IMG/VR virus record: IMGVR_UViG_3300012663_000706
Reading direction: 5' to 3' (one strand)
DNA from: a virus
Taxonomy: Duplodnaviria; Heunggongvirae; Uroviricota; Caudoviricetes
Length of the DNA stretch: 64,000 bases
Part shown: positions 4,378 to 55,171 of the stretch, one piece after another
How the letters are laid out: the number at the start of each line of letters is the position of its first letter
Position numbering within the stretch: position 1 is the stretch's first letter
The notes under the pieces: generated by a model
Told to the model about the DNA's origin: nothing
The model's input: the letters and a program-made list of their open reading frames with translations, nothing else
Databases searched by the model: none
Made by a program: the position numbers and the translations under genes

Positions 4378-4519
4378 TATATTTCTTAACTATTATTAAA
4401 TAATAAAAAGATGTAGCATCTTCTTCGGTATCAAAATACTCTTTAATATCACTTCCATCTTCGTTGTACTCGACCCACCATTGTGAACCATTAAAATCCA
4501 TATTTATAAATGTTTTCAT
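4367..4519 (-). CDS. small acidic protein (~50 aa; the track ORF 4367..4549 starts earlier)
   Basis: The MKTF... start lies 1 nt after the fiber paralog 3 stop, and the ORF ends 6 nt before the paralog 2 start. It is tightly packed between the fiber genes and could be a fiber chaperone. Confidence 0.35.
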   Translation of the reverse strand: MKTFINMDFNGSQWWVEYNEDGSDIKEYFDTEEDATSFYYLIIVKKYNAK

Positions 4520-4520
4520 A

Positions 4521-7747: not shown

Positions 7748-8470
7748 CTAGTGGACTGTGTTTTCAACTCGGCGGTCCCATCCGATATGTTTGACATAAC
7801 CATCTTGGTCGTTCATTGTCATTGAAACAAATCGGTAGCCTAAATCTCTATAGTACTTATCAACCCAATGTTCTTTTCCAAATTGGCTATAACCACCAGA
7901 ACCCAGTTTAAAGTAATCTTTCATTCTCTTAAGACCTGGATTATATGAGAAACCAGCATAATTAATTACTGTTTCCTTCTCTCCATTCTCTAAAACTTGG
8001 CCAGTGTAGAAACTAGCAGGAACAACACTACGAAATGGAATACCATTCTCAGTATAAAATACTTCCGGATAGATGGCATTTAAGATTCCATCGGATTTTG
8101 GTCGAATCCATGCTTGCAAGATTTCTGGTCTAGATTCTAAAAGAGCCATTGATTTTTCAATGAATCCACCAGCATAGAATTCCCAATCATCTTCACAATG
8201 GAATACGTATGGTGTTGTAATTTGAGAATAAGCTTGGTCAATTGTTTTACTTTGACCAAGCTTAGTTTTATTAAATATAAATTCTAGCATTCCGCCATAT
8301 TTTTTATTTAACTCTTTACATTGTTTCCAGATTTTAGGATCTGCTGAATCTTCAGTTATGATATATCTCTCAATTGGACATTGATTAAATTTCAAGAAGC
8401 TATCAATAGTTCTTTCTAAAAGGTCTAGTCGACCGCAACTTGTAATTAAAAATGTTACCATATTATCCAT
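7748..8470 (-). CDS. putative GT-A-fold glycosyltransferase-like protein (240 aa)
   Basis: N-terminal FLITSCGRLDLLERTIDS resembles GT2 nucleotide-binding starts. CEDDWEF is a DxD-like acidic motif. The call is weak. Confidence 0.3.
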   Translation of the reverse strand: MDNMVTFLITSCGRLDLLERTIDSFLKFNQCPIERYIITEDSADPKIWKQCKELNKKYGGMLEFIFNKTKLGQSKTIDQAYSQITTPYVFHCEDDWEFYAGGFIEKSMALLESRPEILQAWIRPKSDGILNAIYPEVFYTENGIPFRSVVPASFYTGQVLENGEKETVINYAGFSYNPGLKRMKDYFKLGSGGYSQFGKEHWVDKYYRDLGYRFVSMTMNDQDGYVKHIGWDRRVENTVH

Positions 8471-9503
8471 TTAGAGGTTCAGATCCATGCAGTCCAAAAC
8501 CTACTTTTTTATTTTTACTCTTGATTCTTGGTTTAATTTTAAAACCATTTAATCTTTCGATAGTTTCATCGAACGTGTTATCTAAAGTCATGACTGAAAT
8601 TACCAATTCTCTCATGTGAGCAAGAGACATACCTTCGCTTTTTTCAACCCATTCCGAAAGATTAACTTTCTTAATATCGTCTTTGGTTAATTTATTACGC
8701 AAATAAGATTCTCTAACTTCGGCAGTTGGCATCTCAACTTCATATCTTCTGTCAAAACGAGATGGGCGGTTTGAGATTCTCTCCTCTAACTTCTCTGGGT
8801 AATTCGTTGTTGCAATATAAACAATATTATCGATTTGCTTAACACCATCCAGGATGTTTAGAATTAACGAGGTATTGTATCTCTCTTCACCTGCAATAGA
8901 ATCAATATCCTCTAAGATAACAATGATTGGTCTATTTGGCTCGATTAATCGAATTGAATCAATAAACTCTGTATATTTCTCAATTGCGTCAGCATTCGTG
9001 ATATTAATTACAATACCATTCATGTTTTTAATCAAGTGATTTGTACAAAGCTGAATGATTCCAGATTTACCGCAACCTGGCTCTCCATATAATAAGATTC
9101 CTCTCTTGTGTACAAAGTTATATTGTTTGTACTTTTCAGCATTTGCCCAGAATTTGCTAATATCTTCAATGATGTCTGTAATTTCCTTTGAAGGTAATTC
9201 ATACAACTCATCGCTATTTACTGGCTTATGAACCATGATTGGAGAACCGATCGAGTGGTCATATTTAATTTCATAAAAACCAGCTGGCAACTTTGCAGTT
9301 GTTGGAAAACTTGGACCATACTTGCCATTTCCTAAAATTGACCATTGAGTATAACCTTTCTCTAATTCTTTCTTCTCTTCCTTTTCTTGTTCTGATTCTC
9401 TTTCATACTTAAGCATTTCAAGAGCAACTTCAGCATCTGTTATTTCATCATCGTGGTCTTCCACATCATTGATTGATTTCATTGAATTTTCTTTTATGTT
9501 CAT
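8463..9503 (-). CDS. AAA+ ATPase (346 aa) with an acidic N-terminal extension
   Basis: Walker A GEPGCGKS, Walker B IVILEDIDS, sensor-1 ATTNYPEKL and arginine-finger region SRFDRR. Confidence 0.8.
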   Translation of the reverse strand: MNIKENSMKSINDVEDHDDEITDAEVALEMLKYERESEQEKEEKKELEKGYTQWSILGNGKYGPSFPTTAKLPAGFYEIKYDHSIGSPIMVHKPVNSDELYELPSKEITDIIEDISKFWANAEKYKQYNFVHKRGILLYGEPGCGKSGIIQLCTNHLIKNMNGIVINITNADAIEKYTEFIDSIRLIEPNRPIIVILEDIDSIAGEERYNTSLILNILDGVKQIDNIVYIATTNYPEKLEERISNRPSRFDRRYEVEMPTAEVRESYLRNKLTKDDIKKVNLSEWVEKSEGMSLAHMRELVISVMTLDNTFDETIERLNGFKIKPRIKSKNKKVGFGLHGSEPLNG

Positions 9504-9524
9504 ATTAAGTTATCTACAGTTATA

Positions 9525-10160
9525 TTAATCCCACCAGCCGTTTAATCCGGTTCCATTGTACCATTCATTCCAAAGATCGCGACTATTCTTTTCTTCTACG
9601 GAAGCATTTTTTACAATCTTTTTAAATTCGGCGTGGTTTTGACCTTTTAAAATATTCCAAAGCTCTTTCCATTCCTGTTCTTCAATTTGGCGAGATCTGT
9701 TAAATACTTTACGATTGTGTTTCTTCTCGAATGGAGTTTCATTATCTACTAATCGACTAAAACCTGGTTTATCTGGAACTTCTTCAAATTCCCAATCTCT
9801 TTGGTATAAATCTCCTAATTCAGCTTCAGCCATTTCAATATAGTTACTCTCATTATAATTCTTAATAAGTTCAACTGCTCTACGCATTGCTGCAACCTTT
9901 TTCATTCTTGGTCCATCAACTTCATTTCCTCTAACTTCTAAGTTATCCGACATGTGGGTTAGCCCAATTTCTAGAAACATTAATGTACCATGATGGTCCC
10001 ACCAATAATGATTAGCTAGAGCCTTTCTAAAACGCCAAACATTTTTTACAAAACGACTAATGTAATATCTAAAAAATGAATAGAATTTATAAATTTTTGA
10101 CTCATGCCAAATTAATTTCTTAAGACTCTTTCCAAAAGAATCAGCAAATCCTATTTCCAT
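9525..10160 (-). CDS. hypothetical protein (211 aa)
   Basis: ORF only. Confidence 0.4.
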   Translation of the reverse strand: MEIGFADSFGKSLKKLIWHESKIYKFYSFFRYYISRFVKNVWRFRKALANHYWWDHHGTLMFLEIGLTHMSDNLEVRGNEVDGPRMKKVAAMRRAVELIKNYNESNYIEMAEAELGDLYQRDWEFEEVPDKPGFSRLVDNETPFEKKHNRKVFNRSRQIEEQEWKELWNILKGQNHAEFKKIVKNASVEEKNSRDLWNEWYNGTGLNGWWD

Positions 10161-12374: not shown

Positions 12375-12463
12375 TGGCGGAAAGAGTAGGATTCGAACCC
12401 ACGGTACCTTGCAGTACGTCAGATTTCAAGTCTGATGCGATAGACCAACTCTGCCATCTTTCC
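12375..12463 (-). tRNA. tRNA-Ser (anticodon TGA)
   Basis: The reverse complement is GGAAAGA...GGTTCGAATCC...TCTTTCCGCCA. It has a 7-bp acceptor stem, a TTCGAAT T-loop, the anticodon loop cTTGAaa (UGA) and a long variable arm with a GTAC self-paired stem, as expected for a class II Ser tRNA. An ATATATAA-like motif lies about 12 nt upstream. Confidence 0.8.
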
Positions 12464-12496: not shown

Positions 12497-15400
12497 TTAA
12501 AACGCTGGTTTCGTTCTGAAAACAGCGTTATTGATAGCATCTTCAAAAGCGTTTTGTATGTCTGCCTTTGTAAGTTGCTGACCTGGTTTTGCCGCAGGTC
12601 CAGCTGGTGCTCCAGGTTTTCCTGTGCCAGCTTTTGCGTTTGCAGCAGCCATTGCAGGTGATGGAGTAACCGAAGGTGTTTCGACCGGAGCCGCTGTACT
12701 TTTCTTAAATTCTTCGATCATCAATGTTAATTGTTTGATCGAATCGTTAAGTGCAGAACTCATTTGGTTAATTGAACCAGCGCCTTTATATCCAGAAAGA
12801 TATGCAAGACCTTGGAACATATCGCTTGTAAATTTCAAGTTAACTTTGTCAAATGAATTTAAGGTATCTTTAAGTCTACCCATATCATCGACATATTTCT
12901 TAAAGTTGTCTACGAATTTAACCCATGGATCAATATTCTCTGCGATAATCTTCATTTTATCAGCAACATTTCCTAGAACTAGAACAAATTTACCCTGTTC
13001 TTCTGAATTTTCTCCAGCACTTGCAAGAGCTCCAGTCATTCCAGAAATAATTCCTTGAATTTTAGTATTTAATGCAGCTGGATCAACGTTAGTTTCCATG
13101 AATGTTTTAGCAGCATCTGCAATTTTCTTAATTGGATCTGCAAAACTCTGAACAAGTTCAACACCATCTTCGATTTTAGAAGAACCAAACCAACCCCAAT
13201 CATTTTGAGCATCTGGATTATTTCCAATCTCTCCCATAGTTCCTGTTAACGCAATTACGAGAGATCTGATATTATCAGTAACTTTTTGCATGGAATCTTT
13301 TCCTAGAGATTCGTATCCTACGATTTTTCCATTTTGATAAATTGGTATCTTAAGATCTGCAAAAGCCTGAACTCCTTTGGCAATTTCAGAAATAGCGCTT
13401 CCCATACCTTGTACAGCTCCAATACCATCGGTAACTGGATTTCCGCCACCGCCAAAAATCATGTTTGTAAAACTCTTCTGTCCTCCAGGATATTCAAGTC
13501 CTATTTCTCCAAATACATCAGCTAAAGAACCAACAATATTTCTAATATTATCTTTTAATTTATCGAATGCACCAGAATCAAGACTATTATAACCAACAAT
13601 TTTTGTACCTTGATAAATTGGGAACTTTAAGTCAGCCATTGATTGAACTCCGCCTGCAATTGATGTTAGTACATCTCCCATTCCCATTACTGCGGCAATA
13701 CCATCAGCGACTGGTGATTGTGACCCTCCACCAAAAACACTAGCAAAGAAGCCTGATTTACCACCAGGATATTTAACCCCTAATTCACCAAAGGTCGTAC
13801 TTAATGAACCAACAATTAAATTGATATTATCATTAACCTTTTTAAATGTGTCATTAGATAATGTGTAGTAACCTGTGATTTTAGTTCCTGTATAGATTGG
13901 AAACTTTAAGTCAGCCATTGATTGAACTCCATAAGCAATTCCTGATAGAGCGTCTCCCATTCCCATTGTTGCAGAAATACCATCAGCTAGCGCAGATTGT
14001 TTTCCTCCACCAAAGATACTGGCAAATAAACTTTTACTTCCTCCTGGATATTTAACTCCTAATTCAGCAAATGGTGTTGCGATTGACGTAATTAAGTTAC
14101 CAATTTGAGTTGGTATGACTGCGTAATCTATTTTTAAATCCTGAATCTTTTTAATACCGTATGATATTGTAGCTAATGCCATCCCAGCCATAATCATAGC
14201 AGGTGCAGTAGCATACATTGATGCGATATTTACAGGGCTAAGTGTAAATGAACGTGCAATTGATAACATCAACCACTCCATATTACTCATCATTCTTCCA
14301 GCACCAAAACCTAAGAATCCTTCAGTCTCGTGTCCTGAATCGCCGAGCATTACAGACATATCGCTACCACTAAATAACTTCGCCATTGCCATTGCTCCAA
14401 GAGCAACTGCTCCTAATGCTACACCAGCAACAATCATTGCTGCGGCACCGGCAAGAATAAATACTGCAGCAGCTCCAGCAACTCCCATAACTAATCCTAC
14501 TCCAGTAACTAATGCACCAATCTGACCAATTGTAGTCCAACCTGATGCGTCTGGTTTAACCGCTGATGCAAATATATTAACTGCTAATCCTAATAATATA
14601 ATTGGGATTGCGGCAACTATCATCACAAGTGCTCCTTCAAAAATTGGCAGCGCTTGTTTACCAGCCAAATACATTACTAATGCTACACCGGTAACCATTG
14701 CACCGACCATTAATAATGTACCCATAGGATCTCCAGTTTTTTGTAGAAACTGATCTACTAAATATATTGCTAGACCTAATAAAAGTATTGCTCCAGCTGC
14801 GAACATTAACGCTATACTGGTAGTTCTTAATGATTTATCAACTCCTAATTTATCAAGTGCAAAAAACATTAAACCTATACCAAGAACTATGGCTCCAACA
14901 AACATTAAAGTCTTGATTGGATCGTCCATTGCTGCTAATATAACTTCAACTAATAAAAATGTTATTCCTAAAGTTAGAATTGCTAAACTAGCAAACATTA
15001 ATGCTTTACTAGTATCTTTCATAGATTTATCAATTCCCATCTTATCTAACAAAAAGAATACTCCTCCAATTGCTAGCAATGAAATTACAATAAATGGTAA
15101 TGCTGTTATACCAACTGGATAGAGAAATGAAGCTAATACTAAAGCAACTCCAAGTATTAATATTGCCTTTCCAACTCCGCCCATTGCAATTAATGCCTCT
15201 TGGGTTTTCTTATCTGATAGTGGCTTTGCAGCTATTTGTAAAACTTTAGCTATAATAAATAATGCTAATCCAAATAAAGGTGCTGCAATTGCTCCTATTA
15301 ATAAGAGTGGTGTTGCTAAAAATAAATATGCAGCAAATTTAAGAATTGCTGGTCCTATTTTTGAAATAGAATCGATTGTTAAAACTAGGGCTTCTGCCTT

Positions 15401-15826
15401 TGCTTTAAATTCTTTACTAGAACCTTGCATAGATTCAATTGCATCAACAATTGCTTTTAATCCTTTACCAATACCTTGTAATCCTTTACCTCCTAAAACT
15501 TTAAGTGCTACAGCATCTCCAATTCCAGAACCGCCTGCAGCTCCGCCTCCTCCTTTACCAGATTTAGTGTTTGTTGCGATTTCTTTTAATAGTTTTAACT
15601 CGTCTAGCCTTTGTTTAAATTGAAGCATGTTCGCAGCCTGACCGCCAGTGCTAATCGCTTTAGTAGTATTTACTGCGATGGTCTTTAACAACTTTACCAT
15701 CTCATCTACTTTACCAAAAAAGGCTCCACCTGGGGAAACTGCTAATGCAGTAACCTCAGATGAAGCGCTAATGTATTGTAAATTGTCGACAGATAGTCGT
15801 TCAAAAGGACTTTTGAAAATGCTCAA
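12497..15826 (-). CDS. tail tape measure protein (1109 aa), apparent TTG start
   Basis: Very large protein downstream of the tube and sheath genes. It has multiple TM helices and three tandem ~90-aa repeats (ELGVKYPGG...MGMGD...VQSMADLKFPIY.GTKI.GY). Confidence 0.6.
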   Translation of the reverse strand: MSIFKSPFERLSVDNLQYISASSEVTALAVSPGGAFFGKVDEMVKLLKTIAVNTTKAISTGGQAANMLQFKQRLDELKLLKEIATNTKSGKGGGGAAGGSGIGDAVALKVLGGKGLQGIGKGLKAIVDAIESMQGSSKEFKAKAEALVLTIDSISKIGPAILKFAAYLFLATPLLLIGAIAAPLFGLALFIIAKVLQIAAKPLSDKKTQEALIAMGGVGKAILILGVALVLASFLYPVGITALPFIVISLLAIGGVFFLLDKMGIDKSMKDTSKALMFASLAILTLGITFLLVEVILAAMDDPIKTLMFVGAIVLGIGLMFFALDKLGVDKSLRTTSIALMFAAGAILLLGLAIYLVDQFLQKTGDPMGTLLMVGAMVTGVALVMYLAGKQALPIFEGALVMIVAAIPIILLGLAVNIFASAVKPDASGWTTIGQIGALVTGVGLVMGVAGAAAVFILAGAAAMIVAGVALGAVALGAMAMAKLFSGSDMSVMLGDSGHETEGFLGFGAGRMMSNMEWLMLSIARSFTLSPVNIASMYATAPAMIMAGMALATISYGIKKIQDLKIDYAVIPTQIGNLITSIATPFAELGVKYPGGSKSLFASIFGGGKQSALADGISATMGMGDALSGIAYGVQSMADLKFPIYTGTKITGYYTLSNDTFKKVNDNINLIVGSLSTTFGELGVKYPGGKSGFFASVFGGGSQSPVADGIAAVMGMGDVLTSIAGGVQSMADLKFPIYQGTKIVGYNSLDSGAFDKLKDNIRNIVGSLADVFGEIGLEYPGGQKSFTNMIFGGGGNPVTDGIGAVQGMGSAISEIAKGVQAFADLKIPIYQNGKIVGYESLGKDSMQKVTDNIRSLVIALTGTMGEIGNNPDAQNDWGWFGSSKIEDGVELVQSFADPIKKIADAAKTFMETNVDPAALNTKIQGIISGMTGALASAGENSEEQGKFVLVLGNVADKMKIIAENIDPWVKFVDNFKKYVDDMGRLKDTLNSFDKVNLKFTSDMFQGLAYLSGYKGAGSINQMSSALNDSIKQLTLMIEEFKKSTAAPVETPSVTPSPAMAAANAKAGTGKPGAPAGPAAKPGQQLTKADIQNAFEDAINNAVFRTKPAF
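13250..14080 (-). repeat. three tandem ~270-bp intragenic repeats inside the tape measure gene
   Basis: The protein-level repeats are described under the gene at 12497..15826; the nucleotide similarity is visible by eye. Confidence 0.6.
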
Positions 15827-27778: not shown

Positions 27779-28729
27779 TTACGATCTAACGACCGTTTGT
27801 AGTTTGTACACGCAGCTTAGCATTGTTATGATTGGATCGATAACATGTACTCTTTGTGCTTGGTGTTCGGCAACAGCAATTGCTATTTGCGGGATATGTT
27901 TGATTGAATTTGGCTTCTCGGCTTGGATATACTCGATGAAATCATTTCCTAGAGATTGTAAAACATCGTCAACTCGGTTTGAATAATCACTGACTAATTG
28001 TTTGTAATTCTTGGCAGGATCTGTTTCATTGAAAATCAATTCGAATACATCTTTATAGACTGAGTTAAATTTCTTAACGTCATCGATTGAAATATTCTGC
28101 GTGCCTTGAGTTTTATATCCTTGCAATTTATTAAGAGTGCTTCTTAAATCTGGAAAATTACGTTTAACAAATTCAACCAAGGCTGGCTTATCAATTGTCA
28201 TGCCTTCCTTTCCGCAAATATCATAAACTCTCTTAATGTACTTCTTAGTCAATTCAGTTTCTTCTGCTTTGTCAAAGTCAAAGTTAATAACTTCGAAACG
28301 AGAAAGGATTGGATCTGGAATTTTATTAACATAATTACATGTTGCAATAAAACGAGAGTTGCTAGCAAATTGCTCCATGGTAGCACGTAAGGCTTTAAAG
28401 AACTGATCTGATACACCATCAACCTCATCTAATATAACTACTTTGAATTTTCCTTGGTCATCTAGAATTGACATCGTTGAACAGAAATCAGTAATTCTGG
28501 TTCTAATAACTTCTACCGAAGTATCAGTCGACGCATTAATGTAAATGTAGGGTAGACCGAATTGGTTAACAATTGCCTTAGCAGTTGAAGTTTTTCCAGT
28601 TCCTGGACTTCCGGCTAGTAACATGTTCTGTGTTATGCCATCCTTAAATTTAGACATTACTCTGTCTGGTAGGATTAATTCCGATAAGTTTTTCGGACGA
28701 TATTTCTCTGTAAAAAGGGAGTGAACCAT
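27779..28729 (-). CDS. clamp loader large subunit (gp44/RFC-like AAA+, 316 aa)
   Basis: Walker A LLAGSPGTGKTSTAKAI, Walker B VVILDEVD and an SRF arginine-finger-like motif. The size matches T4 gp44. Confidence 0.8.
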   Translation of the reverse strand: MVHSLFTEKYRPKNLSELILPDRVMSKFKDGITQNMLLAGSPGTGKTSTAKAIVNQFGLPYIYINASTDTSVEVIRTRITDFCSTMSILDDQGKFKVVILDEVDGVSDQFFKALRATMEQFASNSRFIATCNYVNKIPDPILSRFEVINFDFDKAEETELTKKYIKRVYDICGKEGMTIDKPALVEFVKRNFPDLRSTLNKLQGYKTQGTQNISIDDVKKFNSVYKDVFELIFNETDPAKNYKQLVSDYSNRVDDVLQSLGNDFIEYIQAEKPNSIKHIPQIAIAVAEHQAQRVHVIDPIITMLSCVYKLQTVVRS

Positions 28730-46322: not shown

Positions 46323-47519
46323 TTAAAATAATGATGATGAATAAATTAAGTTTCTATTTAATGTTTGTAAACCAATCGACTGAAGTATTCTGTTCAATGG
46401 ATCGATCATTGTTTTTTCAAATTGTATTTCATAATCTACTGGAGGTGCTATCTCATAAGGATGGTCTCCTGGAAAGTATGCGAACATTTCGCAAGTTCCG
46501 TGTATGCAATGATACAATTTAAGTTTTTCTCCATTACCAATCAACTTGTACTTATTTTTATACTTTCCATTGTTGTTTAATAGGTAATTGTAGAATCCTG
46601 CGGCTTTTACATTCGGTGGACATTTAGATCCATACTGGAATTCGATATGATCGTCGACAATATATTTCTCAATATTGTTTGTTCTCTTATTGAATGTAAT
46701 ATCATCAATATCTGCCATTTTAAATTCTTTCTTAGTCTTTTTTAGGAATGTTACCAATTTACTAAGAGTTTCTGCATTAGGTTTTTCAGTAAAAAGTAAT
46801 TGAATTACTTCAGTTAATTTTTTACGGATAAATGTAGGAGAAGAAGATTGAATTGAATCAAAGCCGACAACTTTTACTTTTTTCAAAGGTTTGTGGCGTT
46901 CATGTCCTTTTAGTTTATCATCCCATGCAAGTTCTTGGATGTATTTCTTTTTGGCCATCCAAATACCATTATATGCAATCGATTCAAGTTCAAATTCTAA
47001 GAAAGAATCTGTGTTTGTGTTCTCTGCATACTTATCTAAGGCCTTTACAATATACGCCTTGATACGCATATTATAGATTGCTAAGATAAATGTAACAATA
47101 TCCATTTGTTCGCCATGCCATTCGATTGATTCGTACATTTCTTGAAACTGAACATAGTTCGAATCAGTATCAATGTAAATTACGGCTTCTTTGTGGATTG
47201 CTTTCTTAACGGAAATATTCAGCTTCTTGTGAACTTCAGTATCTTTAATAAAGAATTCTTGGAAATACTTATTAAGTATCTTTTCAGAATACAGAATCGC
47301 ATTTTGTCCTTGTAATGTAATAGACTCAGCGATGTTAATATTAAAGAAGTGAAACCACTTGTTACCAAAGGCTCCATAGATCGAGTTTAACGTTACTTTT
47401 ACAGCTTGCTCGTAAGCTGTGAACTTGGCCGACTCATTTTTGTAATAAGTGGCCAAGTCTTGAAGCTGTTCTTTTGTAAGTTCACTCTCAGGTTTCTTTA
47501 ATAGTTCATCAATTGTCAT
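46323..47519 (-). CDS. family-B DNA polymerase, C-terminal fragment (motifs B and C; 398 aa)
   Basis: Motif B KVTLNSIYGAFG and motif C YIDTDS. The start is translationally coupled (TAATG) to the upstream 248-aa gene. Confidence 0.8.
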   Translation of the reverse strand: MTIDELLKKPESELTKEQLQDLATYYKNESAKFTAYEQAVKVTLNSIYGAFGNKWFHFFNINIAESITLQGQNAILYSEKILNKYFQEFFIKDTEVHKKLNISVKKAIHKEAVIYIDTDSNYVQFQEMYESIEWHGEQMDIVTFILAIYNMRIKAYIVKALDKYAENTNTDSFLEFELESIAYNGIWMAKKKYIQELAWDDKLKGHERHKPLKKVKVVGFDSIQSSSPTFIRKKLTEVIQLLFTEKPNAETLSKLVTFLKKTKKEFKMADIDDITFNKRTNNIEKYIVDDHIEFQYGSKCPPNVKAAGFYNYLLNNNGKYKNKYKLIGNGEKLKLYHCIHGTCEMFAYFPGDHPYEIAPPVDYEIQFEKTMIDPLNRILQSIGLQTLNRNLIYSSSLF

Positions 47520-48265
47520 TAATCGTTGGTTTGACAGGTTGCAATTGTTAACAATGTAGCTGATTCAGTTGAACGTAATACTACGCGATTATTAAAGACA
47601 TAAGCCTTATAATCTTCTTTGTCCAATAGAGCCAAATACTTTTTGTAAACAGTTACGCTTCCTTTGTCTCCTTCGAAATCAGGACTAACTTGCTTGCTAT
47701 AAGATTTACCACTAATTTTAACACCAGAATCAGATGCTACGATACTAAATGTTTCATCCTTATCAAGATTGAATAAAGATTTGATTTTTCCAGTCTCTAA
47801 ATTACTTAATTCAAATACGAAATCTGAACCTTCAGTATTAAAAATACCTTGTAATTGTGATTCTGTTAAATCTTTGTAACCTAATGACGGTTCAGAGCAA
47901 GACAATGTAATTTCTAAATCTTCATTAAAGATTTTAAAACTAGTTGCTACGCAATCTTCGTCATTCTCGATGAATTCGATTTCACCTTGAATTGTTTGAT
48001 AGTCGAATTGTTTGAAGGCTTCAATTAATTTAGAAGCATCAAAGAAAGCAACTTTCAATTCTTTCTCTGGAGCGGTTCCAGCTACTGCGAAAATCTCTCC
48101 TAATGGAAGAGCATTGTGTTTTACAGCATCACGCTGTGGAAGGTAAGCTGATGAAACTACTTGATCGCCTTTAATCTTGAAATAGATGAAGGAGTCAATT
48201 AGTTTTAATCGGTTTACGAAACCAATAAAATTGTTTTGGTCTACTTTGTTAATTTGTAATTTCAT
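47519..48265 (-). CDS. hypothetical protein, possibly sliding clamp (gp45-like) by size and context (248 aa)
   Basis: Lies between the nrdA terminator and the polymerase C-terminal fragment. No motif supports it. Confidence 0.3.
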   Translation of the reverse strand: MKLQINKVDQNNFIGFVNRLKLIDSFIYFKIKGDQVVSSAYLPQRDAVKHNALPLGEIFAVAGTAPEKELKVAFFDASKLIEAFKQFDYQTIQGEIEFIENDEDCVATSFKIFNEDLEITLSCSEPSLGYKDLTESQLQGIFNTEGSDFVFELSNLETGKIKSLFNLDKDETFSIVASDSGVKISGKSYSKQVSPDFEGDKGSVTVYKKYLALLDKEDYKAYVFNNRVVLRSTESATLLTIATCQTND

Positions 48266-48330
48266 GTGTTTGAACTTTTTAGAAACTTATTGTTATGATA
48301 ATTATATAGGCAGAGCTGGTTTTGTTTCAT

Positions 48331-48363
48331 AAAAAAGGGCAAGGAGTAGCGAATTCCTTGCCC
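48331..48363 (-). terminator. rho-independent terminator after nrdA
   Basis: GGGCAAGGA-9 nt-TCCTTGCCC followed by TTTTTT on the minus strand. Confidence 0.7.
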
Positions 48364-48422
48364 ATACCGAAAACTAGTTCGGGTCCTAAGGGTGGTCTTC
48401 AAACCACACCTTTATTTTTTAT

Positions 48423-50048
48423 CTATCCTTCGCAACTTGAACATTCTAGAATGTTTCTAGCAAATGATTGAGCAGAACTTTGGCTAAATTGGTAGTACAA
48501 AGTTTTTACTCCTTCTTCGTGTGCATATAGATACAATGTATTAATATCTTTGGCCGAAACCGATGGGTGAATCATTAAATTTAATGACTGCGATTGGTCG
48601 ATATATTTCTGTCTCTGTGCCGCTTGTAGAATAAGTTCCTTTGGAGAGATTTCAATAAAAGATTTAAAAACTGCTTTAGTTGGAAAATCTAAATGTTGAA
48701 CTGATCCGTCCTTCTTTAAGATACTTTCCCATACTTCTGGAGTATTTAAACCATATTTCTCAAGTTCTGCCTCTAAATGTGCATTTTTGAAAATAGTTTT
48801 CGACTTGGCCAAATCTTTAATAAAGTAATTTGACTTAATCGGCTCAATACCCATACTAACTTGTCCATGGATAAATGAACTACTTTTCGTAGGAGCAATT
48901 GCAATTAATGTAGTATTTGCAAAACCTTCTCTAATTGATCGGTAACCTAACTCGTCGTGTAGATATTTTGAGGCTGTTTCACTTCTTTCTTTTAGGGTTC
49001 TAAAGATTTCTGCATTTAACATTTTTGCCTGTAGAGAATCAAATTCGATTAATTTAGATTGAAACAACGTGTGATAACCTAAAACGCCTAATCCTAATGC
49101 TCTGTGTTGTTCAGCAAATCGGTGTGCTCTTGACATACCAGGCATGTTATATGATTTCTTTACGAATTCATCCATTACCGCATTCAAGAACATTGTATAA
49201 ACTTCGATTGCATCGGTATTTTTAAGTTCTTCCCAGTGTAAAAGATTAATAGATCCTAAACAACAAACAAAAGAATTAAAACTGTCCGTAGGTAATTGAA
49301 TCTCAGAGCATAGATTACTAGCTGTGATTTCTAAACCTAATTCTTTGTATGGTGAATTGTTATTGGTATTATCTTTAAACATAATATATGGAAAACCAAA
49401 TTCATTACGTCTTTGAATAACTTTAGCCCAGATTTTGCGTTTGTCTGGATCTCCAGCTTTCATTTCTTCGATCCACTTGTCAGTTACAGTAACTCCATAT
49501 TGTAAATTTTGAATTGGATTTCCTTCAGTTCCAATATCCAAGAATTCTAAAATATCACTATGTTCTACTGGTAACCATGCAGCGCATGCTCCTCTTCTCG
49601 CTTCAGATTGTTTGCAAACATCGACTGTAGTATCATACATTCTAGCATAGTGAACTGGTCCATCTGCTGTTCCGCCTGTCGAAATCTTTGCTCCTCTTTC
49701 TCTAATATTTCCTAAATAAATGCTGGTTCCTCCACCATATTTAGACATCATTCCTATTTCTCTGCTTGCATTTAAAATACTATCTAATGTATCATCAACA
49801 TTGCTTCCGTAGCAGCTGATCGGTAAACCTTTGTCTTTTCCAAAGTTAATCCATACTGGAGTTGAAAGGCTATAAAATCCGCGAGACATATAGTCTTCAA
49901 ACTTTTTAGCAAATCCTTCAATCTTTAAATACTTTTCGGCTTTATTTGCAATATCTTTAATTCTTTGTTCCGGTGATTCTGTAATATAACCTCTTGATAA
50001 AAAGGTCCTACTATTCTCATTCAGCCAATAGTATCTATTGTATTCCAT
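48423..50048 (-). CDS. nrdA: class I ribonucleotide reductase alpha subunit (compact, 541 aa)
   Basis: Active-site NLCSEIQLP (the NxCxE thiyl-radical loop) and a C-terminal redox Cys pair, CSSCEG. Adjacent to an nrdB-like gene. Confidence 0.7.
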   Translation of the reverse strand: MEYNRYYWLNENSRTFLSRGYITESPEQRIKDIANKAEKYLKIEGFAKKFEDYMSRGFYSLSTPVWINFGKDKGLPISCYGSNVDDTLDSILNASREIGMMSKYGGGTSIYLGNIRERGAKISTGGTADGPVHYARMYDTTVDVCKQSEARRGACAAWLPVEHSDILEFLDIGTEGNPIQNLQYGVTVTDKWIEEMKAGDPDKRKIWAKVIQRRNEFGFPYIMFKDNTNNNSPYKELGLEITASNLCSEIQLPTDSFNSFVCCLGSINLLHWEELKNTDAIEVYTMFLNAVMDEFVKKSYNMPGMSRAHRFAEQHRALGLGVLGYHTLFQSKLIEFDSLQAKMLNAEIFRTLKERSETASKYLHDELGYRSIREGFANTTLIAIAPTKSSSFIHGQVSMGIEPIKSNYFIKDLAKSKTIFKNAHLEAELEKYGLNTPEVWESILKKDGSVQHLDFPTKAVFKSFIEISPKELILQAAQRQKYIDQSQSLNLMIHPSVSAKDINTLYLYAHEEGVKTLYYQFSQSSAQSFARNILECSSCEG

Positions 50049-50073
50049 TCCTTATTTAATTGTTTTTTAAGTT

Positions 50074-51054
50074 TTAAAATAAATCATCTTCTGTGATGCT
50101 TTGGCTCTTCTTATTATAATCAATTTGCTTCTTATAAAAGAAATCGCCTTCTTTTGTTGAAAGAATTTCAACGTCAAACCATAATGTCTTTTCGATTTCT
50201 GAGAAATCTACTTCAAAGACCGGTTTCATTCCAATTCTAGCTAGAGAATTGTTAAATCTGTTTTGGATAAAACTCTTAATAGTATCTTTTGTTAAGAAAC
50301 TTAGTTCTCCTTTTTCAAAGATCCAGTCTAAGATTTTACATTCAGCAATATAAGCTTTTTTACAAGCTGAATCGATTAATTGTTCGAATTCTTCGTCGAA
50401 CCATTCTGGATTTTCTTCTTTGATAATATTAATAAGTTCAGAACCGAAATTACCATGAATTTCTTCCTCTTTTGAAGTAGCTTCAACGACATTTGAAATT
50501 CCTTTGAAAAGATTTTTCTCTTTATTAAAAGACATCATAATCAAAAATTGGCTAAAAAGGCTGACATGTTCGATGAATAGAGAGAATAAAAGCACCGATT
50601 TGGTATACATTTTATTGTCTTTACTTCTTGTACCGTCTAGATATTTAGTCAAATATGCTATTCTGTCTTTAATTGCTGGAATTTCCACGACATGCATGAA
50701 TTCCTCTTCTAATCCTAAAATTCTTAAAAGTCTTGCGTATGCATCTTTGTGTCTTACTTCAGATTCTGCAAATGTCATTCCAACATCTCCAATCTCTGTG
50801 ATTGGCATTCTTTTGTAAAGATCTGCCCAAAATGTTTTTACATTTACTTCGATTTGTGCTATTGCAAGCATAGACCTTTTAATAACTTCTCTCTCATCGT
50901 CCGATATTTTAGTTTTAAAATCATCAATGTCTGTTGTGAAATTAAACTCGGTGTCGATCCAGTATGAATGACGTATTGCATCCTTGTATGCCAGAAGGGA
51001 AGGATATTCATAGGGAAGAATATTAACCCTTGGCATAAATATGTTATTGTTCAT
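50074..51054 (-). CDS. nrdB: ribonucleotide reductase beta subunit (ferritin-like diiron, 326 aa)
   Basis: ExxH pairs (ESEVRH and EEEIHGNF) and an acidic C-terminal tail for alpha binding. Confidence 0.7.
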   Translation of the reverse strand: MNNNIFMPRVNILPYEYPSLLAYKDAIRHSYWIDTEFNFTTDIDDFKTKISDDEREVIKRSMLAIAQIEVNVKTFWADLYKRMPITEIGDVGMTFAESEVRHKDAYARLLRILGLEEEFMHVVEIPAIKDRIAYLTKYLDGTRSKDNKMYTKSVLLFSLFIEHVSLFSQFLIMMSFNKEKNLFKGISNVVEATSKEEEIHGNFGSELINIIKEENPEWFDEEFEQLIDSACKKAYIAECKILDWIFEKGELSFLTKDTIKSFIQNRFNNSLARIGMKPVFEVDFSEIEKTLWFDVEILSTKEGDFFYKKQIDYNKKSQSITEDDLF

Positions 51055-51104
51055 AATATTTTAGTTTGAATTTTGTTAGAGGTATTATATATTTCTTTAA
51101 CAGT

Positions 51105-52514
51105 CTAGACGCTCTTAGATTCTGCAAGTTTTTTATAATATTCTGACTTTTCGAATAGCTGGTAAGAAGTTGACTTATACTGCTTTCGTTTGTTATATAA
51201 GTCTGTAAGAATTTGTTTTAACATCGAGTCTTCTTTGTTATAAACAACTCCATTCTCGCAAACAATTACATTTTTATCTTTTCTGCGTTCTTCAATTTTT
51301 GCAGCTGGTACCTTTTCGATATATGAATCCGGTGAGATATTAAACTGACGCATGATTGAAGGATATAGGGATGCAAAGTCAAATGCACTTACTCCAGCAT
51401 AGAAACCAACTTTAGGTTCTTTAACAAATGCTCCTGCAAATTGTGTATCTTTTACACCATCATCTCTTTGCTCTGTTCCGATTCTTAATCCATCTTCTGC
51501 CATTTTTCTGGCAATTAAGGCTTCAGTTACAGCAACCGGAGATGCTGCTTTATAAATTGGCATTCTAGTAATGTTTGCCAATGTTAAAAGAACTTCCATT
51601 GATTTTAATTTCTGGTCAATAAAATAAACCAGCACTGAATCGACTACGTTATAATAAACATACTTTTTAAAATCATCACGATACAGGTCTTGTAAACCAC
51701 CGTTGTATTTGATTTTTCCAATACCAAGAACTTGGCCAGAAACATAATCAAGCGAATTAGATTCTTTTACTTTTACAGATTTATCATATTTGTCATACAA
51801 TTGCATGTAATCTAGAATACCCATGTGAAGTGGTCTAGAATCTGTTGGGTCGAGTGCTTTCGTGATTGCCGATTCAGCGATATCGATTTGTAAATGTTTA
51901 CAACGATTAACGATATATTGCCAGTCATAGTTAATAAAGTTCCAACCTGACATCATTGGGAATTTAGGCATAAATTTATACAAGAACGTATAAACCATGT
52001 CATATTCTGTTTTAAACTTTATGTATTGAAAAGTCCAGTTAACTCCAAATTGTTTAAAATAATCATTAGTATCTTTTTCAATTTGGGAAATTTGATCAGC
52101 ATCAAGGTCTTCTAAACCTAATACGATTGTCTTTCCGTTTGGCGTAATAATAGAGAATGTTAGAATACGAGATTTTGCTTCTTCTGCTCTTGGAAAACCA
52201 TCAACAATTTCTGTTTCAATATCGACAAAATAAGTCTTTGGCATATTGTATGCATAAATCTCTTCTTTGTCCTTTTCAGGGAGACTATCCATAAAATATA
52301 CCAAAGAGAATTTATTGAACTGACGAGAGTTTTGTAATTTAACCGATCTTCCATCCCAATTTTTAACTTTGGTACTTGAATCTCTTTCTTTGGCATCACA
52401 AACTGCCCAATTTTGGTATTGTGGAATTGGGTATCTTTTAAATGCTACTTCTCCTGCTGGATTGTAGTATGAAACCATTATTTCCTTATCTCGTTGTTCT
52501 ATATCTAATAGCAT
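51105..52514 (-). CDS. family-B DNA polymerase, N-terminal fragment (3'-5' exonuclease plus motif A; 469 aa)
   Basis: Exo I FVDIETE, Exo II NYDWQY, Exo III YYNVVD and motif A DFASLYPSIMRQFNISPDSY, which nearly matches T4 gp43 DLTSLYPSIIRQVNISPETI. Confidence 0.8.
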   Translation of the reverse strand: MLLDIEQRDKEIMVSYYNPAGEVAFKRYPIPQYQNWAVCDAKERDSSTKVKNWDGRSVKLQNSRQFNKFSLVYFMDSLPEKDKEEIYAYNMPKTYFVDIETEIVDGFPRAEEAKSRILTFSIITPNGKTIVLGLEDLDADQISQIEKDTNDYFKQFGVNWTFQYIKFKTEYDMVYTFLYKFMPKFPMMSGWNFINYDWQYIVNRCKHLQIDIAESAITKALDPTDSRPLHMGILDYMQLYDKYDKSVKVKESNSLDYVSGQVLGIGKIKYNGGLQDLYRDDFKKYVYYNVVDSVLVYFIDQKLKSMEVLLTLANITRMPIYKAASPVAVTEALIARKMAEDGLRIGTEQRDDGVKDTQFAGAFVKEPKVGFYAGVSAFDFASLYPSIMRQFNISPDSYIEKVPAAKIEERRKDKNVIVCENGVVYNKEDSMLKQILTDLYNKRKQYKSTSYQLFEKSEYYKKLAESKSV

Positions 52515-52534: not shown

Positions 52535-53002
52535 TTAATATCCTCTAGCTTGTCTTTGTTTATTTTCTTCTGCTTTTGCAAAATAATAATTGTAAGCTGT
52601 TTTTGCATCTAATCCAATTGATGATGCATAGTTAATAAAGAAGTGTAGAATGTCTACCCATTCCATATACAATTCTTTCTTATCATTTTCAGATAGGTCA
52701 GAGATTTTCATGTTCTCATATTTCTTATGAGCAGTTTTCCAGTATTTCCATACTGCATTTCCATCTCCATCTTTAATACCACCAAGAGCATCAGTCATTT
52801 CGTGAATTTCATCAACTACGGCATGAGTGTTAACATGCCAAAAGTTCATAATATCACGGATAGACATATTATCAAAATTAAACCCGTAAGTTTGCTCTTG
52901 CATAATTTTTTGATTCTCCATAATGTCAGCTAAATGTGTAGTTGACTTGTCATAGAAGTTAACAACTTCTAAATCTTTGCATTCGTTGTCTATGTTTGCC
53001 AT
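52535..53002 (-). CDS. MazG-like NTP pyrophosphohydrolase family protein (155 aa; tentative)
   Basis: All-alpha protein with paired acidic motifs (VVDEIHEMTD and MEWVDILHF), as in the MazG/dimeric dUTPase fold. Adjacent to the polymerase. Confidence 0.35.
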   Translation of the reverse strand: MANIDNECKDLEVVNFYDKSTTHLADIMENQKIMQEQTYGFNFDNMSIRDIMNFWHVNTHAVVDEIHEMTDALGGIKDGDGNAVWKYWKTAHKKYENMKISDLSENDKKELYMEWVDILHFFINYASSIGLDAKTAYNYYFAKAEENKQRQARGY

Positions 53003-53003
53003 A

Positions 53004-53429
53004 TTATTTATTGTTTTTTACAAATTTCTTATAATCTTCGATATAATTTCTGATACGATCAGAACCGACTGGATTCATTGAGTGTACATAAAAATTAGGT
53101 ACCTCGATATTGTTATCTTGACAGAATTCTACTAAGAATTTAGCACAATCTAAACCTGTTTTTTCTTCAAATTCAGTTGGATAATCATCAGCATCTCCGC
53201 AAGTTGGGCTGTAATGTTCATCTGCTAAATCATGGTCAAATGATACTGTTGCAGGAATTCCGTTTGTTTTAATCCATTCAACAAACTCATCATAGTTTAC
53301 TACTATGTCCCAGTCTAGTTGAGTGTAGATTGCGGCACTAGTTCCAATTCGGTGAGGCATGTAACCCATGCAGTCGTGTGGAATTCTAAAATCGTCTAAG
53401 AATAAATTTTTATTGTTTGTTCTTTTCAT
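53004..53429 (-). CDS. hypothetical protein (141 aa)
   Basis: ORF with an LFLDDFR...FDHDL pattern. Unassigned. Confidence 0.4.
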   Translation of the reverse strand: MKRTNNKNLFLDDFRIPHDCMGYMPHRIGTSAAIYTQLDWDIVVNYDEFVEWIKTNGIPATVSFDHDLADEHYSPTCGDADDYPTEFEEKTGLDCAKFLVEFCQDNNIEVPNFYVHSMNPVGSDRIRNYIEDYKKFVKNNK

Positions 53430-53452: not shown

Positions 53453-54493
53453 TTAGAAAAGAGCATTTTGTTCAAAATTATTATTAAAGAAATATTCCAT
53501 TAGAGAATTATCAGCTCTTGCAACTTTTCTTCGATTAATTAGATGTGGGTTACTTCTTAGTCGGTAATAAACTCCGTACTGACAAAGTCCTACTTCGCAG
53601 CCGTATGTTTTTAAATCGTCTTGCTCGTCTTGAAAAATCTTCTTGCCATTTACTTCAACATTATGCGTTGATTCATGTAGAGGAATATCTCCAATTAGGT
53701 CTTTGTAGTTCTCTCTAAACCAAATTACTCGATCACCGTATGGAATTGTGCAATCTTCACCAAACATTAAGTCTAATGTAAATCTAGCTCCTGGTCCTGG
53801 TACACAGAATCTTTCGTCATGATTAACATTAATTCTTGGATTTACCGAATTGGACGTTGAGCAGTGATACCCGTAGTACTGTCCTACACCTTCTAGCGAG
53901 GACATAATTTCATACATCTCGCTTAAAGAATTAACCTGGGCCATCCTTCCAGTGATTCCTCTAGGTATAAATGACGCTACCCATAATAAAATATTAATTT
54001 TATGAGCATCTCGTTCCTGGTTTCTGGTTTGGGCAACATAAGTATTGGCTGCGCCGAATAAACTTGTACGTAATTCTGTACTTCCGTAGATCGGCAAACC
54101 TAAAGAAACTGCGTCTTCTAAATTCTTACGAATTTTATTTTCATATTCTCTATCAACTAAAAGTCTTTCGAAATCAACTAAAGCTGTTTTAGGATTTGGA
54201 TCTCTTGTTAGGATTTGGTGAATTCCACGAGCTCCGTAAAAGTGAGAAATAATCGTATTGCAGATAATATTGTCCATTGAGATTGGAGCATATACAATAT
54301 TCTCCATGATATATCTCATACGGTCATCTAGAGTAATTTGTGGGTGGAAGTATTCTACTGTTTCTCCTAACGCATCGTCTCCGTCGCTACTATAAGTATC
54401 TAGAACACCCATATTGTAGAGAGCTCTTTCATTAACTTTGTTAAAGAATCTACCGATATCTTTAACCACTTCCATATTTACTCTATCTCTCAT
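53453..54493 (-). CDS. hypothetical protein (346 aa)
   Basis: ORF only. Confidence 0.4.
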   Translation of the reverse strand: MRDRVNMEVVKDIGRFFNKVNERALYNMGVLDTYSSDGDDALGETVEYFHPQITLDDRMRYIMENIVYAPISMDNIICNTIISHFYGARGIHQILTRDPNPKTALVDFERLLVDREYENKIRKNLEDAVSLGLPIYGSTELRTSLFGAANTYVAQTRNQERDAHKINILLWVASFIPRGITGRMAQVNSLSEMYEIMSSLEGVGQYYGYHCSTSNSVNPRINVNHDERFCVPGPGARFTLDLMFGEDCTIPYGDRVIWFRENYKDLIGDIPLHESTHNVEVNGKKIFQDEQDDLKTYGCEVGLCQYGVYYRLRSNPHLINRRKVARADNSLMEYFFNNNFEQNALF

Positions 54494-54502
54494 TTTTAAT
54501 TT

Positions 54503-55171
54503 TTATTTTGTGAACCAACAATCGTAACCTGCTACGCTTTGAAATACTATTAATTCTTTAATGTGCTGCTTTGGGTATAACGCTGTTAATCTTTCTAATG
54601 TAGGTTGCGCATATTGTTTAACTTTACCCATGTGCAATTCTACGAATAGAGCTTCTGGTTGGTATGCTTCTACAAATTCTATAATTTGATATTCAGCACC
54701 TTCAATATCGATTTTAATAATATCTGGTTGATATTTCTTTAAAAGCTCGCTAATATGAATGTTAATAACTTCATCGTAGTCGGTAAATTTGCTACGTTTC
54801 ATAATAGAAACTGAACAATGCGCTTGTTGGCTATTACCCTTATAGATTCTAATAGAAGGTGCTGTACTATCCGATACTGCAGCATGAATTATGTTTGCTT
54901 TAGGTTCGTCTGCAAAACTTTCTGCCATTTTTTCATAATTGCGAATATCGCATTCTACAGTATAAACTGCTTTAGCTCCTCCGTCAATTGCTACTTTAGT
55001 AAAACCTCCAACATTTCCACCTAGATCTAAACAAACTTTATCAGTAAAGTCTATTTCTGGAGTCATGTAATTAGTAATACAATCAACAATCATGTTTTTG
55101 TCAACTGATTCTGTCGCATTTAAATACTTAATGTATTTTCTTTTTAATTCTCTTTGTACTGGTGTCAGCAT
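54503..55171 (-). CDS. SAM-dependent methyltransferase (FkbM-like, 222 aa)
   Basis: Rossmann motif I VCLDLGGNVGGFT, followed by acidic motif II. Confidence 0.6.
   Translation of the reverse strand: MLTPVQRELKRKYIKYLNATESVDKNMIVDCITNYMTPEIDFTDKVCLDLGGNVGGFTKVAIDGGAKAVYTVECDIRNYEKMAESFADEPKANIIHAAVSDSTAPSIRIYKGNSQQAHCSVSIMKRSKFTDYDEVINIHISELLKKYQPDIIKIDIEGAEYQIIEFVEAYQPEALFVELHMGKVKQYAQPTLERLTALYPKQHIKELIVFQSVAGYDCWFTK

Follow-up and report, generated by a model that had tools for sequence, protein, structure and literature searches.

The DNA described here is a 64,000-nucleotide (nt) stretch from a virus of the class Caudoviricetes (IMG/VR record IMGVR_UViG_3300012663_000706), which we refer to as the window. 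Between positions 46323 and 52514, a family-B DNA polymerase is encoded as two separate open reading frames (ORFs) of 469 and 398 amino acids (aa), henceforth PolN and PolC, with the genes of a ribonucleotide reductase (RNR) and of a putative sliding clamp lying between them. Gene order and strand were read from the ORF list and the translations, and all five ORFs were present at their coordinates on the minus strand. In the 5' to 3' direction, the order is a 155-aa gene, the 469-aa ORF, nrdB, nrdA, a 157-nt spacer, the 248-aa ORF, and the 398-aa ORF. The features are as follows.

52535..53002, minus strand: MazG/dUTPase_2-like nucleoside triphosphate (NTP) pyrophosphohydrolase, 155 aa, upstream neighbor (phrog_173, E 1e-12)
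51105..52514, minus strand: PolN, N-terminal half of the family-B polymerase, 469 aa; N-terminal domain, 3'-5' exonuclease (Exo I–III), first part of the palm with motif A, and first fingers helix, ending at the fingertip
50074..51054, minus strand: nrdB, class I RNR small subunit by sequence, 326 aa (Pfam Ribonuc_red_sm PF00268, E 1.8e-57)
48423..50048, minus strand: nrdA, short RNR large subunit, 541 aa (Pfam Ribonuc_red_lgC PF02867, E 3.8e-96; weak lgN match)
48331..48363, minus strand: intrinsic terminator after nrdA; 9-bp stem, 9-nt loop, TTTTTT
48301..48330, minus strand: weak promoter-like site between the terminator and the clamp gene, ATGAAA-18 nt-TATAAT (consensus scan, 10/12 matches)
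47519..48265, minus strand: predicted sliding clamp, divergent member of the PCNA/gp45 superfamily, 248 aa (predicted fold and link to PAU gp109)
46323..47519, minus strand: PolC, C-terminal half of the family-B polymerase, 398 aa; second fingers helix with motif B, palm motif C, thumb, and conserved C-terminal tail
27779..28729, minus strand: gp44-like clamp-loader large subunit (phrog_168, E 8.6e-75)

PolN matched the Pfam domains DNA_pol_B_exo1 (PF03104) and DNA_pol_B (PF00136), the latter over profile positions 33–137, and PolC matched DNA_pol_B (PF00136) over positions 152–390. All the motifs assigned to these ORFs in a preliminary description of this DNA were found in the translations: FVDIETE (Exo I), SGWNFINYDWQY (Exo II), YYNVVDS (Exo III), and DFASLYPSIM (motif A) in PolN, and KVTLNSIYG (motif B) and YIDTDS (motif C) in PolC. 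PolN also contains NKRKQYK in its first fingers helix, equivalent to RB69 R482/K486, the arginine and lysine residues that contact the triphosphate. The PHROGs database holds separate families for exactly these two pieces: PolN covered positions 56–499 of the 502 in the N-half-only family phrog_2062 (E 4e-80), and PolC covered positions 7–374 of the 382 in the C-half-only family phrog_1918 (E 1e-71). The Pfam and PHROG coordinates and the motifs confirm a family-B polymerase encoded by two complementary cistrons and broken between motifs A and B; as each half carries the motifs missing from the other, the two are not paralogs with full motif sets. The placement of nrdB and nrdA between them was likewise supported by the Pfam matches listed above; with the genes for a barrel-type large subunit and a ferritin-like small subunit adjacent to each other, the pair is assigned to the class I RNRs by sequence. 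GC content was 0.29–0.36 throughout the region, revealing no compositional anomaly, and a megablast search of the 6.2-kb region against phage genomes returned no match.

The break was then placed by alignment to RB69 gp43, as the preliminary description had proposed. HMMER aligned residues 66–451 of PolN to RB69 residues 85–490 and residues 12–318 of PolC to residues 531–819. In a MAFFT alignment of the concatenated halves with RB69 gp43 and an intact Flavobacterium-phage polymerase, the last PolN residue corresponded to RB69 residue 508. Residue ~508 lies within the RB69 ~490–530 loop, where the two antiparallel fingers helices meet at their tip; of these, the first belongs to PolN and the second, which bears motif B, to PolC. 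Breaks at the same site, RB69 residues 507–513, were found in PAU, MA9V-1, pT24, PTm1, and the Aeromonas 44RR 43A/43B pair, 43A of phage 44RR2.8t ending at residue ~512 in the alignment. A break between motifs A and B, which had been thought to look unusual, thus falls at a site shared with 44RR2.8t and given as the natural break of bicistronic gp43 (PMC3061061).

On the full-length family phrog_262, PolN covers positions 66–494 and PolC positions 491–843. An intact polymerase of MaF61 is tiled by PolN at 20–546 and PolC at 576–994, and the intact metagenomic polymerase P0123 at 1–482 and 484–869. As the halves tile all three, they make up one polymerase, with nothing duplicated or lost. A short similarity between the fragment termini had been proposed as a junction duplication. 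Smith-Waterman alignment of the last 40 residues of PolN with the first 45 of PolC scored 33, versus 24.4 ± 4.9 for shuffled sequences (p=0.07), and the best local alignment differed from the proposed pairing (QL....YYKK.AESK and QL....YYKNESAK). No similar terminal stretch was present in PAU, MA9V-1, pT24, or PTm1, and the PolN tail varied in length and sequence even in relatives that were 70–78% identical. In intact homologs, furthermore, the counterparts of these stretches are two distinct segments, namely the two fingers helices. On the shuffle test, the relatives, and the non-equivalence of the segments, we rejected a junction duplication; the tiling without overlap also speaks against it.

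The split was reproduced in independent data. An identical 248-aa protein (P0001) was recorded on 133 contigs, the longest of 233 kb; the four contigs viewed, from independent samples, had the same gene order, as did relatives in which this protein was 63–67% identical. The arrangement is therefore real and not an assembly or frameshift artifact. In comparisons with relatives, the ratio of nonsynonymous to synonymous substitution rates (dN/dS) was 0.09–0.14 for PolN, 0.08 for PolC, and 0.17 for the 248-aa gene, with saturated dS, and 0.03–0.08 for nrdA; nrdB was 90–92% identical in two relatives (L011 and L012). Neither inactivating motif substitutions nor relaxed selection was seen in the two polymerase halves, both of which, by these ratios, are under purifying selection. 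Pfam found DNA_pol_B domains only, with no Intein_splicing domain in either half, and Rfam gave no intron match in the gap; on these searches, rejoining by an intein or intron was rejected. Searches of the gap with Pfam and PHROGs revealed no endonuclease or transposase, the gap consisting of nrdB, nrdA, and the 248-aa gene.

The sequence and its predicted fold both support the strong terminator that had been noted in the gap. On the minus strand at 48363..48331, a 9-bp GC-rich stem (GGGCAAGGA / TCCTTGCCC) encloses a 9-nt loop and is followed by TTTTTT. The surrounding 106 nt (48320–48425, minus strand) folded at -35.1 kcal/mol (z -4.75), and 0 of 200 shuffled sequences were as stable. The terminator scanner missed this site because the loop exceeded its 8-nt limit. 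At 47519–47523, the TAA stop codon of the 248-aa gene shares a base with the ATG of PolC (TAATG), and the stop/start overlap underlying the proposed translational coupling was thus seen directly. The number of promoter-like sites in the region was not above shuffled expectation in a consensus scan. The spacer between nrdA and the 248-aa gene, which bears the terminator, is a variable spot: a near-identical contig (L010) has an extra 123-aa ORF (9517–9888) there, and a 63%-identity relative (L012, 8460–9883) has two, of 227 and 182 aa. None of these extra ORFs had a Pfam match.

The 248-aa ORF, which had been called clamp-like, matched no Pfam or PHROG family; its identity as a clamp was reached through fold comparison and PAU gp109. 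AlphaFold2, run with 23 homologs, gave a model with a mean predicted local distance difference test score (pLDDT) of 78.5. All top 50 Foldseek matches to the model in the Protein Data Bank (PDB) were PCNA (best E 5.5e-10, probability 1.00), with template modeling (TM) scores of ~0.38, and the predicted PCNA fold thus agrees with the earlier label. In addition, hhalign matched the protein to PAU gp109 over 213 columns (probability 88.6%, E 2.6e-6); Kazlauskas et al. (PMC4889955) had assigned gp109, whose gene is beside that of the polymerase, as a divergent clamp of the T4 gp45 type. Homologs of the 248-aa protein are encoded directly upstream of PolC in LR756500 (L005, with a 169-aa ORF between the two genes), L022, L023, and L024, and directly upstream of the intact polymerase in L021. 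The gp44-like loader in the window leads one to expect a clamp in this genome. A second AAA+ ATPase of 346 aa (8463..9503, minus strand) weakly resembles clamp-loader families (phrog_168, E 4e-8). PolC ends in ...NLIYSSSLF, conserved in relatives as NLIYS[ST][ST]LF, a tail that is likely to bind the clamp by analogy with gp43. The conserved tail and the adjacency of the genes are consistent with such binding and with the formation of a clamp ring.

An exhaustive HMMER search with the C half recovered 2717 representatives at E <= 1e-3, and the 150 nearest 50%-identity cluster representatives were classified. Among these best 150 of the 2717, ~134 were without an N half and 11 were full length. 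The ~134 comprised 90 stand-alone proteins of 365–460 aa starting at the fingertip, 21 with an intein-like insertion at motif C, 12 post-motif-C pieces, and 11 with C-terminal extensions. The nearest polymerases in the phage collection belonged to uncultured phages of 460–735 kb, Lak megaphages, PAU, MA9V-1/2, PTm1, PTm5, and pT24. Their pieces were arranged as follows.

PAU (Sphingomonas phage): gp105 and gp110, four genes between
MA9V-1 (Chryseobacterium phage): 135 and 138, two genes between
pT24 (Tenacibaculum phage): gp165 and gp168, two genes between, the second overlapping the PolC start
PTm1 (Tenacibaculum phage): three pieces, with a second break at motif C
LR756504: two halves ~280 kb apart on opposite strands
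Lak-A2: two halves ~220 kb apart on opposite strands

By these comparisons, most members of a very large clade of jumbo and mega phages carry the fingertip split, with the clamp gene beside Pol or PolC in the subset of relatives viewed for it (PAU, MA9V-1, pT24, LR756500, and L021–L024). A clamp homolog beside PolC was not found by BLAST in LR756504 or Lak-A2, a result that is uninformative given the divergence of the clamp. Among 352 clamp homologs and the contigs viewed, no relative of >80% identity had an intact gene and an empty site. Neighbor-joining trees of 138 C halves were built with 200 bootstrap replicates, deep nodes being weakly supported. The full-length state required at least 10 changes in every one of the 200 replicates, close to the 12.6 expected at random; therefore, split and intact states have been interchanged many times. 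P0123 grouped with the window family with a bootstrap value of 0.68, while RB69, Acj133, and 44RR formed a T4-like clade (bootstrap 1.0) far from that of the window.

P0123, encoded on contig L021, is 42% and 47% identical to the two halves and, as the nearest relative whose gene is intact, provides an intact state for comparison. The order in L021 is 155-like, nrdB, nrdA, NUDIX, Hc1, clamp, Pol, uvsX, 103-like, IMPDH, dnaB, 146-like, gp47, gp46, gp15; that in the window is 155, PolN, nrdB, nrdA, clamp, PolC, three small ORFs, uvsX, 103, dnaB, 146, gp47, gp46, gp15. Structurally, the two orders differ only in where the PolN segment lies, and the gap genes are therefore the resident upstream neighbors of the polymerase. 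The 155-aa gene, which marks the synteny of the module, is 43% identical to the gene upstream of nrdB in L021 and 34% identical to PAU gp106, encoded between the two polymerase halves of PAU.

More distant relatives share the arrangement. L023 (39% identity) has the order PolN, a single 1256-aa intein-containing RNR at the nrdA position, clamp, PolC, uvsX, x, dnaB. In LR756500 (46%), PolN is followed by an endonuclease-like gene, an RNR fractured by a split intein, several other genes, the clamp gene, a 169-aa ORF, and PolC. Across these genomes the RNRs are only 21–26% identical, which suggests an exchange of the RNR type in place; judged from sequence, it seems to have been replaced in situ. 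The NrdA of the window is short (541 aa) with no ATP-cone detected, and the syntenic NrdA of L021 (5963–8431) has 822 aa with an ATP-cone and is 26% identical. By gene-order comparison, PolN-RNR-clamp-PolC is an old order, and PolN-RNR-clamp-PolC-UvsX-x-DnaB-x-gp47-gp46 is a conserved replication module of the sub-clade. The suggestion that an RNR operon between the halves is unusual is not supported, as the order recurs at 39–46% identity with different RNR types. Nor is the view that a 3.6-kb insertion split the gene: the split is of old standing and found throughout the clade, relatives have their halves 1.2 kb to ~280 kb apart, and the gap genes are resident.

We propose, with a probability of roughly 0.85, that this jumbo phage makes a T4 gp43-type family-B replicative polymerase from two genes broken at the fingertip, that the arrangement is inherited, and that it reflects a local permutation of the module rather than insertion of a foreign cassette. 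The permutation is read from the intact relative, against which only the PolN segment has moved. Under this model, PolN would be transcribed with nrdB and nrdA in a unit that ends at the strong terminator, on a transcript shared with upstream genes. PolC would be translated from a second unit or by read-through, coupled through TAATG to the clamp gene upstream. The two proteins would form a non-covalent 1:1 enzyme whose interface consists of the antiparallel fingers helices and a shared palm, with motif A in one chain and motif C in the other, and the clamp would tether the enzyme through the conserved PolC tail. We infer the association of the halves and polymerization by analogy with phage 25 gp43A/B and split Pfu, and the purifying selection on both halves is consistent with them. 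The same applies to an active heterodimer held by the clamp at the PolC tail, and to how, and in which direction, the module was rearranged.

Several points weigh against this proposal. The association of the halves and clamp binding are deductions from homology. Confidence in the clamp model is moderate (predicted TM score 0.47; TM ~0.38 to PCNA, with a differing domain orientation), and the 248-aa protein had no sequence similarity to the T4-type 44RR gp45 by hhalign or to PDB sequences in a profile search. As the promoter call was no better than chance, the terminator is the sole basis of the two-transcription-unit model. Finally, the change may have been fission in the window lineage or re-fusion in the P0123 lineage, the neighbor-joining trees being weak at depth (bootstrap 0.68).

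The alternative that survives best, although we regard it as unlikely, is that the split arose independently and recently in the window lineage by local rearrangement, for example, by tandem duplication of [RNR-clamp-PolN] followed by loss of the redundant copies, and converged on a permissive fingertip instead of being inherited from a PAU/Lak ancestor. The grouping of intact P0123 with the window family, with RNR and clamp genes directly upstream of its polymerase, is in line with this idea, as are the frequent transitions implied on every bootstrap tree. The 155-like gene lies inside the gap in PAU and outside it in the window, so that the left boundary differs. A separate origin is also suggested for the Aeromonas split, which occurs at the same site within the clade containing intact RB69. 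However, distant L023 and LR756500 already have the PolN-RNR-clamp-PolC order, and no remnant of a duplication is visible. An equally or more parsimonious history is one older origin, followed in the P0123 lineage by re-fusion or replacement of the allele.

A more doubtful idea, raised by analogy, is that the fingertip split is a selected design: an open tip could relax nucleotide discrimination, as in split Pfu, or separate expression could tune subunit stoichiometry, or the clamp and PolC could benefit from co-translation. Relaxed discrimination might suit this phage because it appears to hypermodify its DNA. Under selection of this kind, the exonuclease/N subunit may be made with genes supplying deoxynucleoside triphosphates (dNTPs) and the C subunit with the clamp, and pairing of PolC with the clamp during translation might allow subunit assembly on the clamp. 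The repeated changes between split and intact forms, at least 10 across the 138 sequences, may then reflect repeated selection.

It is very improbable, in our estimation, that a foreign 3.6-kb cassette of nrdB, nrdA, and clamp was recently inserted into an intact polymerase gene. In favor of this reading, three functional genes form a compact block in the gap, intact polymerases occur among fairly close relatives such as P0123, and mobile endonuclease genes are present at polymerase break points in some relatives, such as the gene at L005:20546-22489 abutting the PolN stop. Yet the same split site occurs across a huge and deeply diverged clade, the gap genes are the upstream neighbors of the intact gene in L021, and the order recurs with non-orthologous RNRs. 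The window also shows neither a scar nor a junction duplication, the gap carries no endonuclease or transposase, and GC content is even.

We give still less weight to the halves being remnants of a decaying polymerase while another polymerase replicates the genome. Nothing specific in the window favors decay, although Iyer et al. reported an extra minimal split Pol III alpha in related jumbo phages (PMC7824862); every catalytic motif is intact, dN/dS is low (0.08–0.14, with saturated dS), both halves are kept in hundreds of clusters, and a clamp and clamp loader are retained. An artifact, or rejoining of the halves by an intein, intron, or translational bypass, can be set aside almost entirely: where relatives have an intein or split intein in this gene (PTm1 gp239, LR756500, Lak-A2), its site is motif C, and the window halves have no Intein_splicing domain and no Rfam intron, they match intact homologs in length with nothing left over, they are separated by 3.6 kb with three conserved genes and a terminator, and the same order recurs in the contigs viewed, with P0001 itself on 133.

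For annotation, our reading means that both ORFs should be described as one two-subunit replicative polymerase and the 248-aa ORF as its putative sliding clamp, and that neither half is a fragment or pseudogene. For evolution, the locus adds evidence that the fingertip is a permissive site of repeated breakage and perhaps rejoining, and the comparison shows that a two-piece polymerase is the rule among jumbo and mega phages of a very large clade, most of them uncultured. Modest interest attaches to the adjacency of the clamp gene before Pol or PolC (PAU, MA9V-1, pT24, LR756500, and L021–L024), the conserved module, and the apparently frequent transitions.

Other genes of the window were noted in passing. 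Beyond the 155-aa gene, a 141-aa protein (53004..53429, minus strand) matched cREC_REC (PF20274, precomputed table) and phrog_1479; its gene is missing from the near-identical contig L009. A 346-aa protein (53453..54493, minus strand) matched HMUDK_hel, the helical domain of a 5-hydroxymethyldeoxyuridine (5-hmdU) DNA kinase, in the precomputed Pfam table, and a relative, contig L011, encodes an AGT glucosyltransferase (3885–5117) in the same neighborhood; judged from these sequences, the phage probably hypermodifies its own DNA. A Methyltransf_21 gene (54503..55171, minus strand) and a gene like that of myo-inositol-1-phosphate synthase (PF01658; 55639..56820, minus strand), an unusual auxiliary gene for a phage, lie a short way upstream of the replication module. 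The window has one tRNA gene (12378..12463, minus strand; Rfam, 53 bits), beside which lies a 1109-aa ORF with a TTG start (12497..15826, minus strand) and no PHROG match.

Among known systems, the bicistronic gp43 of T4-related phages (44RR2.8t, 25, 31, 65, and Acinetobacter 133) is broken at the fingertip between the fingers helices, as in the window. Hansen et al. (PMC3061061), in a passage that refers to Petrov et al. (2006, 2010), describe natural fingertip splits of T4-like gp43 with cistrons 2 bp to 3 kb apart, and the same break is given for phages 25, 31, 65, and 133. Edgell et al. reported that gp43A and gp43B of phage 25 co-purify and are active (PMC2988022). The 43A/43B pieces of 44RR2.8t have 498/391 aa and those of another pair 506/392 aa, compared with 469/398 aa in the window; these subunits are non-covalent and have no intein, as would be the case here. 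In phage 133, ~2.9 kb with eight ORFs separates 43A from 43B. In 44RR2.8t and 133, the clamp gene 45 lies upstream of 44-62-regA-43A and not between the halves, whereas the gap in the window holds the RNR and clamp genes. In the window, a terminator ends one unit within the gap, and the clamp gene is coupled translationally to the C half. The split of the Straboviridae 43A/43B phages, which share a clade with intact RB69, looks separate in origin.

PAU (gp105/gp110 with clamp gp109), pT24, PTm1, and MA9V-1 belong to the same polymerase lineage (25–34% identity) and have the same fingertip break. In the PAU, pT24, and MA9V-1 group, a homologous divergent clamp is encoded between the halves beside PolC, and in pT24 its stop codon overlaps the PolC start, as in the window. 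The gap content differs: PAU has a dUTPase-like gene and two ORFs, MA9V-1 and pT24 have one ORF each besides the clamp, and an RNR is absent from all of these gaps. In PTm1, the polymerase is broken again at motif C, where a split intein and an endonuclease occur. The closest database polymerases, at 32–46% identity, are those of Lak megaphages and uncultured huge phages of 460–640 kb (LR756500–LR756504, LR745206); for LR756504 and Lak-A2, direct comparison confirmed that the break is at the fingertip. The order dnaB-uvsX-PolC-clamp-...-RNR-...-PolN is retained in LR756500; in LR756504, LR745206, and Lak-A2, unlike in the window, the halves are 100–280 kb apart on opposite strands. Motif C is the site of an intein or split intein in Lak-A2 and LR756500, and genes resembling those of homing endonucleases also occur.

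The C half is broken again at motif C (DTD|S) in LR756500 (L005 8784–12184 and 16360–20531) and PTm1 (L003 10522–13328). The upstream piece ends with an intein N-terminal splicing domain; next come a free-standing endonuclease gene ('VSR endonuclease' in PTm1, DUF7487+REase_MTES_1575 in LR756500) and the remaining polymerase sequence, a layout resembling a 'fractured gene' with a split intein. In LR756500, the large subunit of the RNR is broken up in a like manner, and PolC of Lak-A2 (L020 ~3550–5615) has an in-frame intein at motif C (...AGDTD|STSWK...ILAHN|SIYVEF). A 647-aa DUF7487+REase_MTES_1575 gene of LR756500 (L005 20546–22489) overlaps the PolN stop exactly at the fingertip break, which suggests that mobile endonuclease genes colonize, and perhaps create, this break point in some lineages.

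Two further systems are more distant. In engineered split Pfu (PMC3061061), a cut near the fingertip left a stable 1:1 complex that matched the wild type kinetically, both when coupled translation produced it and when separate fragments were reconstituted, and together with Q484R the split broadened tolerance to gamma-phosphate-modified dNTPs. It differs from the window in being archaeal and artificially split inside helix O, with adjacent cistrons. PhiKZ DNAP-N/DNAP-C (PMC13648687) and Methanothermobacter PolB1/PolB2 are two-polypeptide family-B polymerases encoded by distant genes. Their break sites differ from the fingertip break of the window, being in a palm insertion in PhiKZ and in the palm in Methanothermobacter. 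PhiKZ also uses Rhc, a clamp-related processivity subunit (PMC13648687), and is without a ring clamp and loader, whereas the window has a predicted full two-domain clamp and a gp44-like loader. The fingertip-split family-B polymerase was thus already known, and the window adds a further member to it, not a new kind of system.

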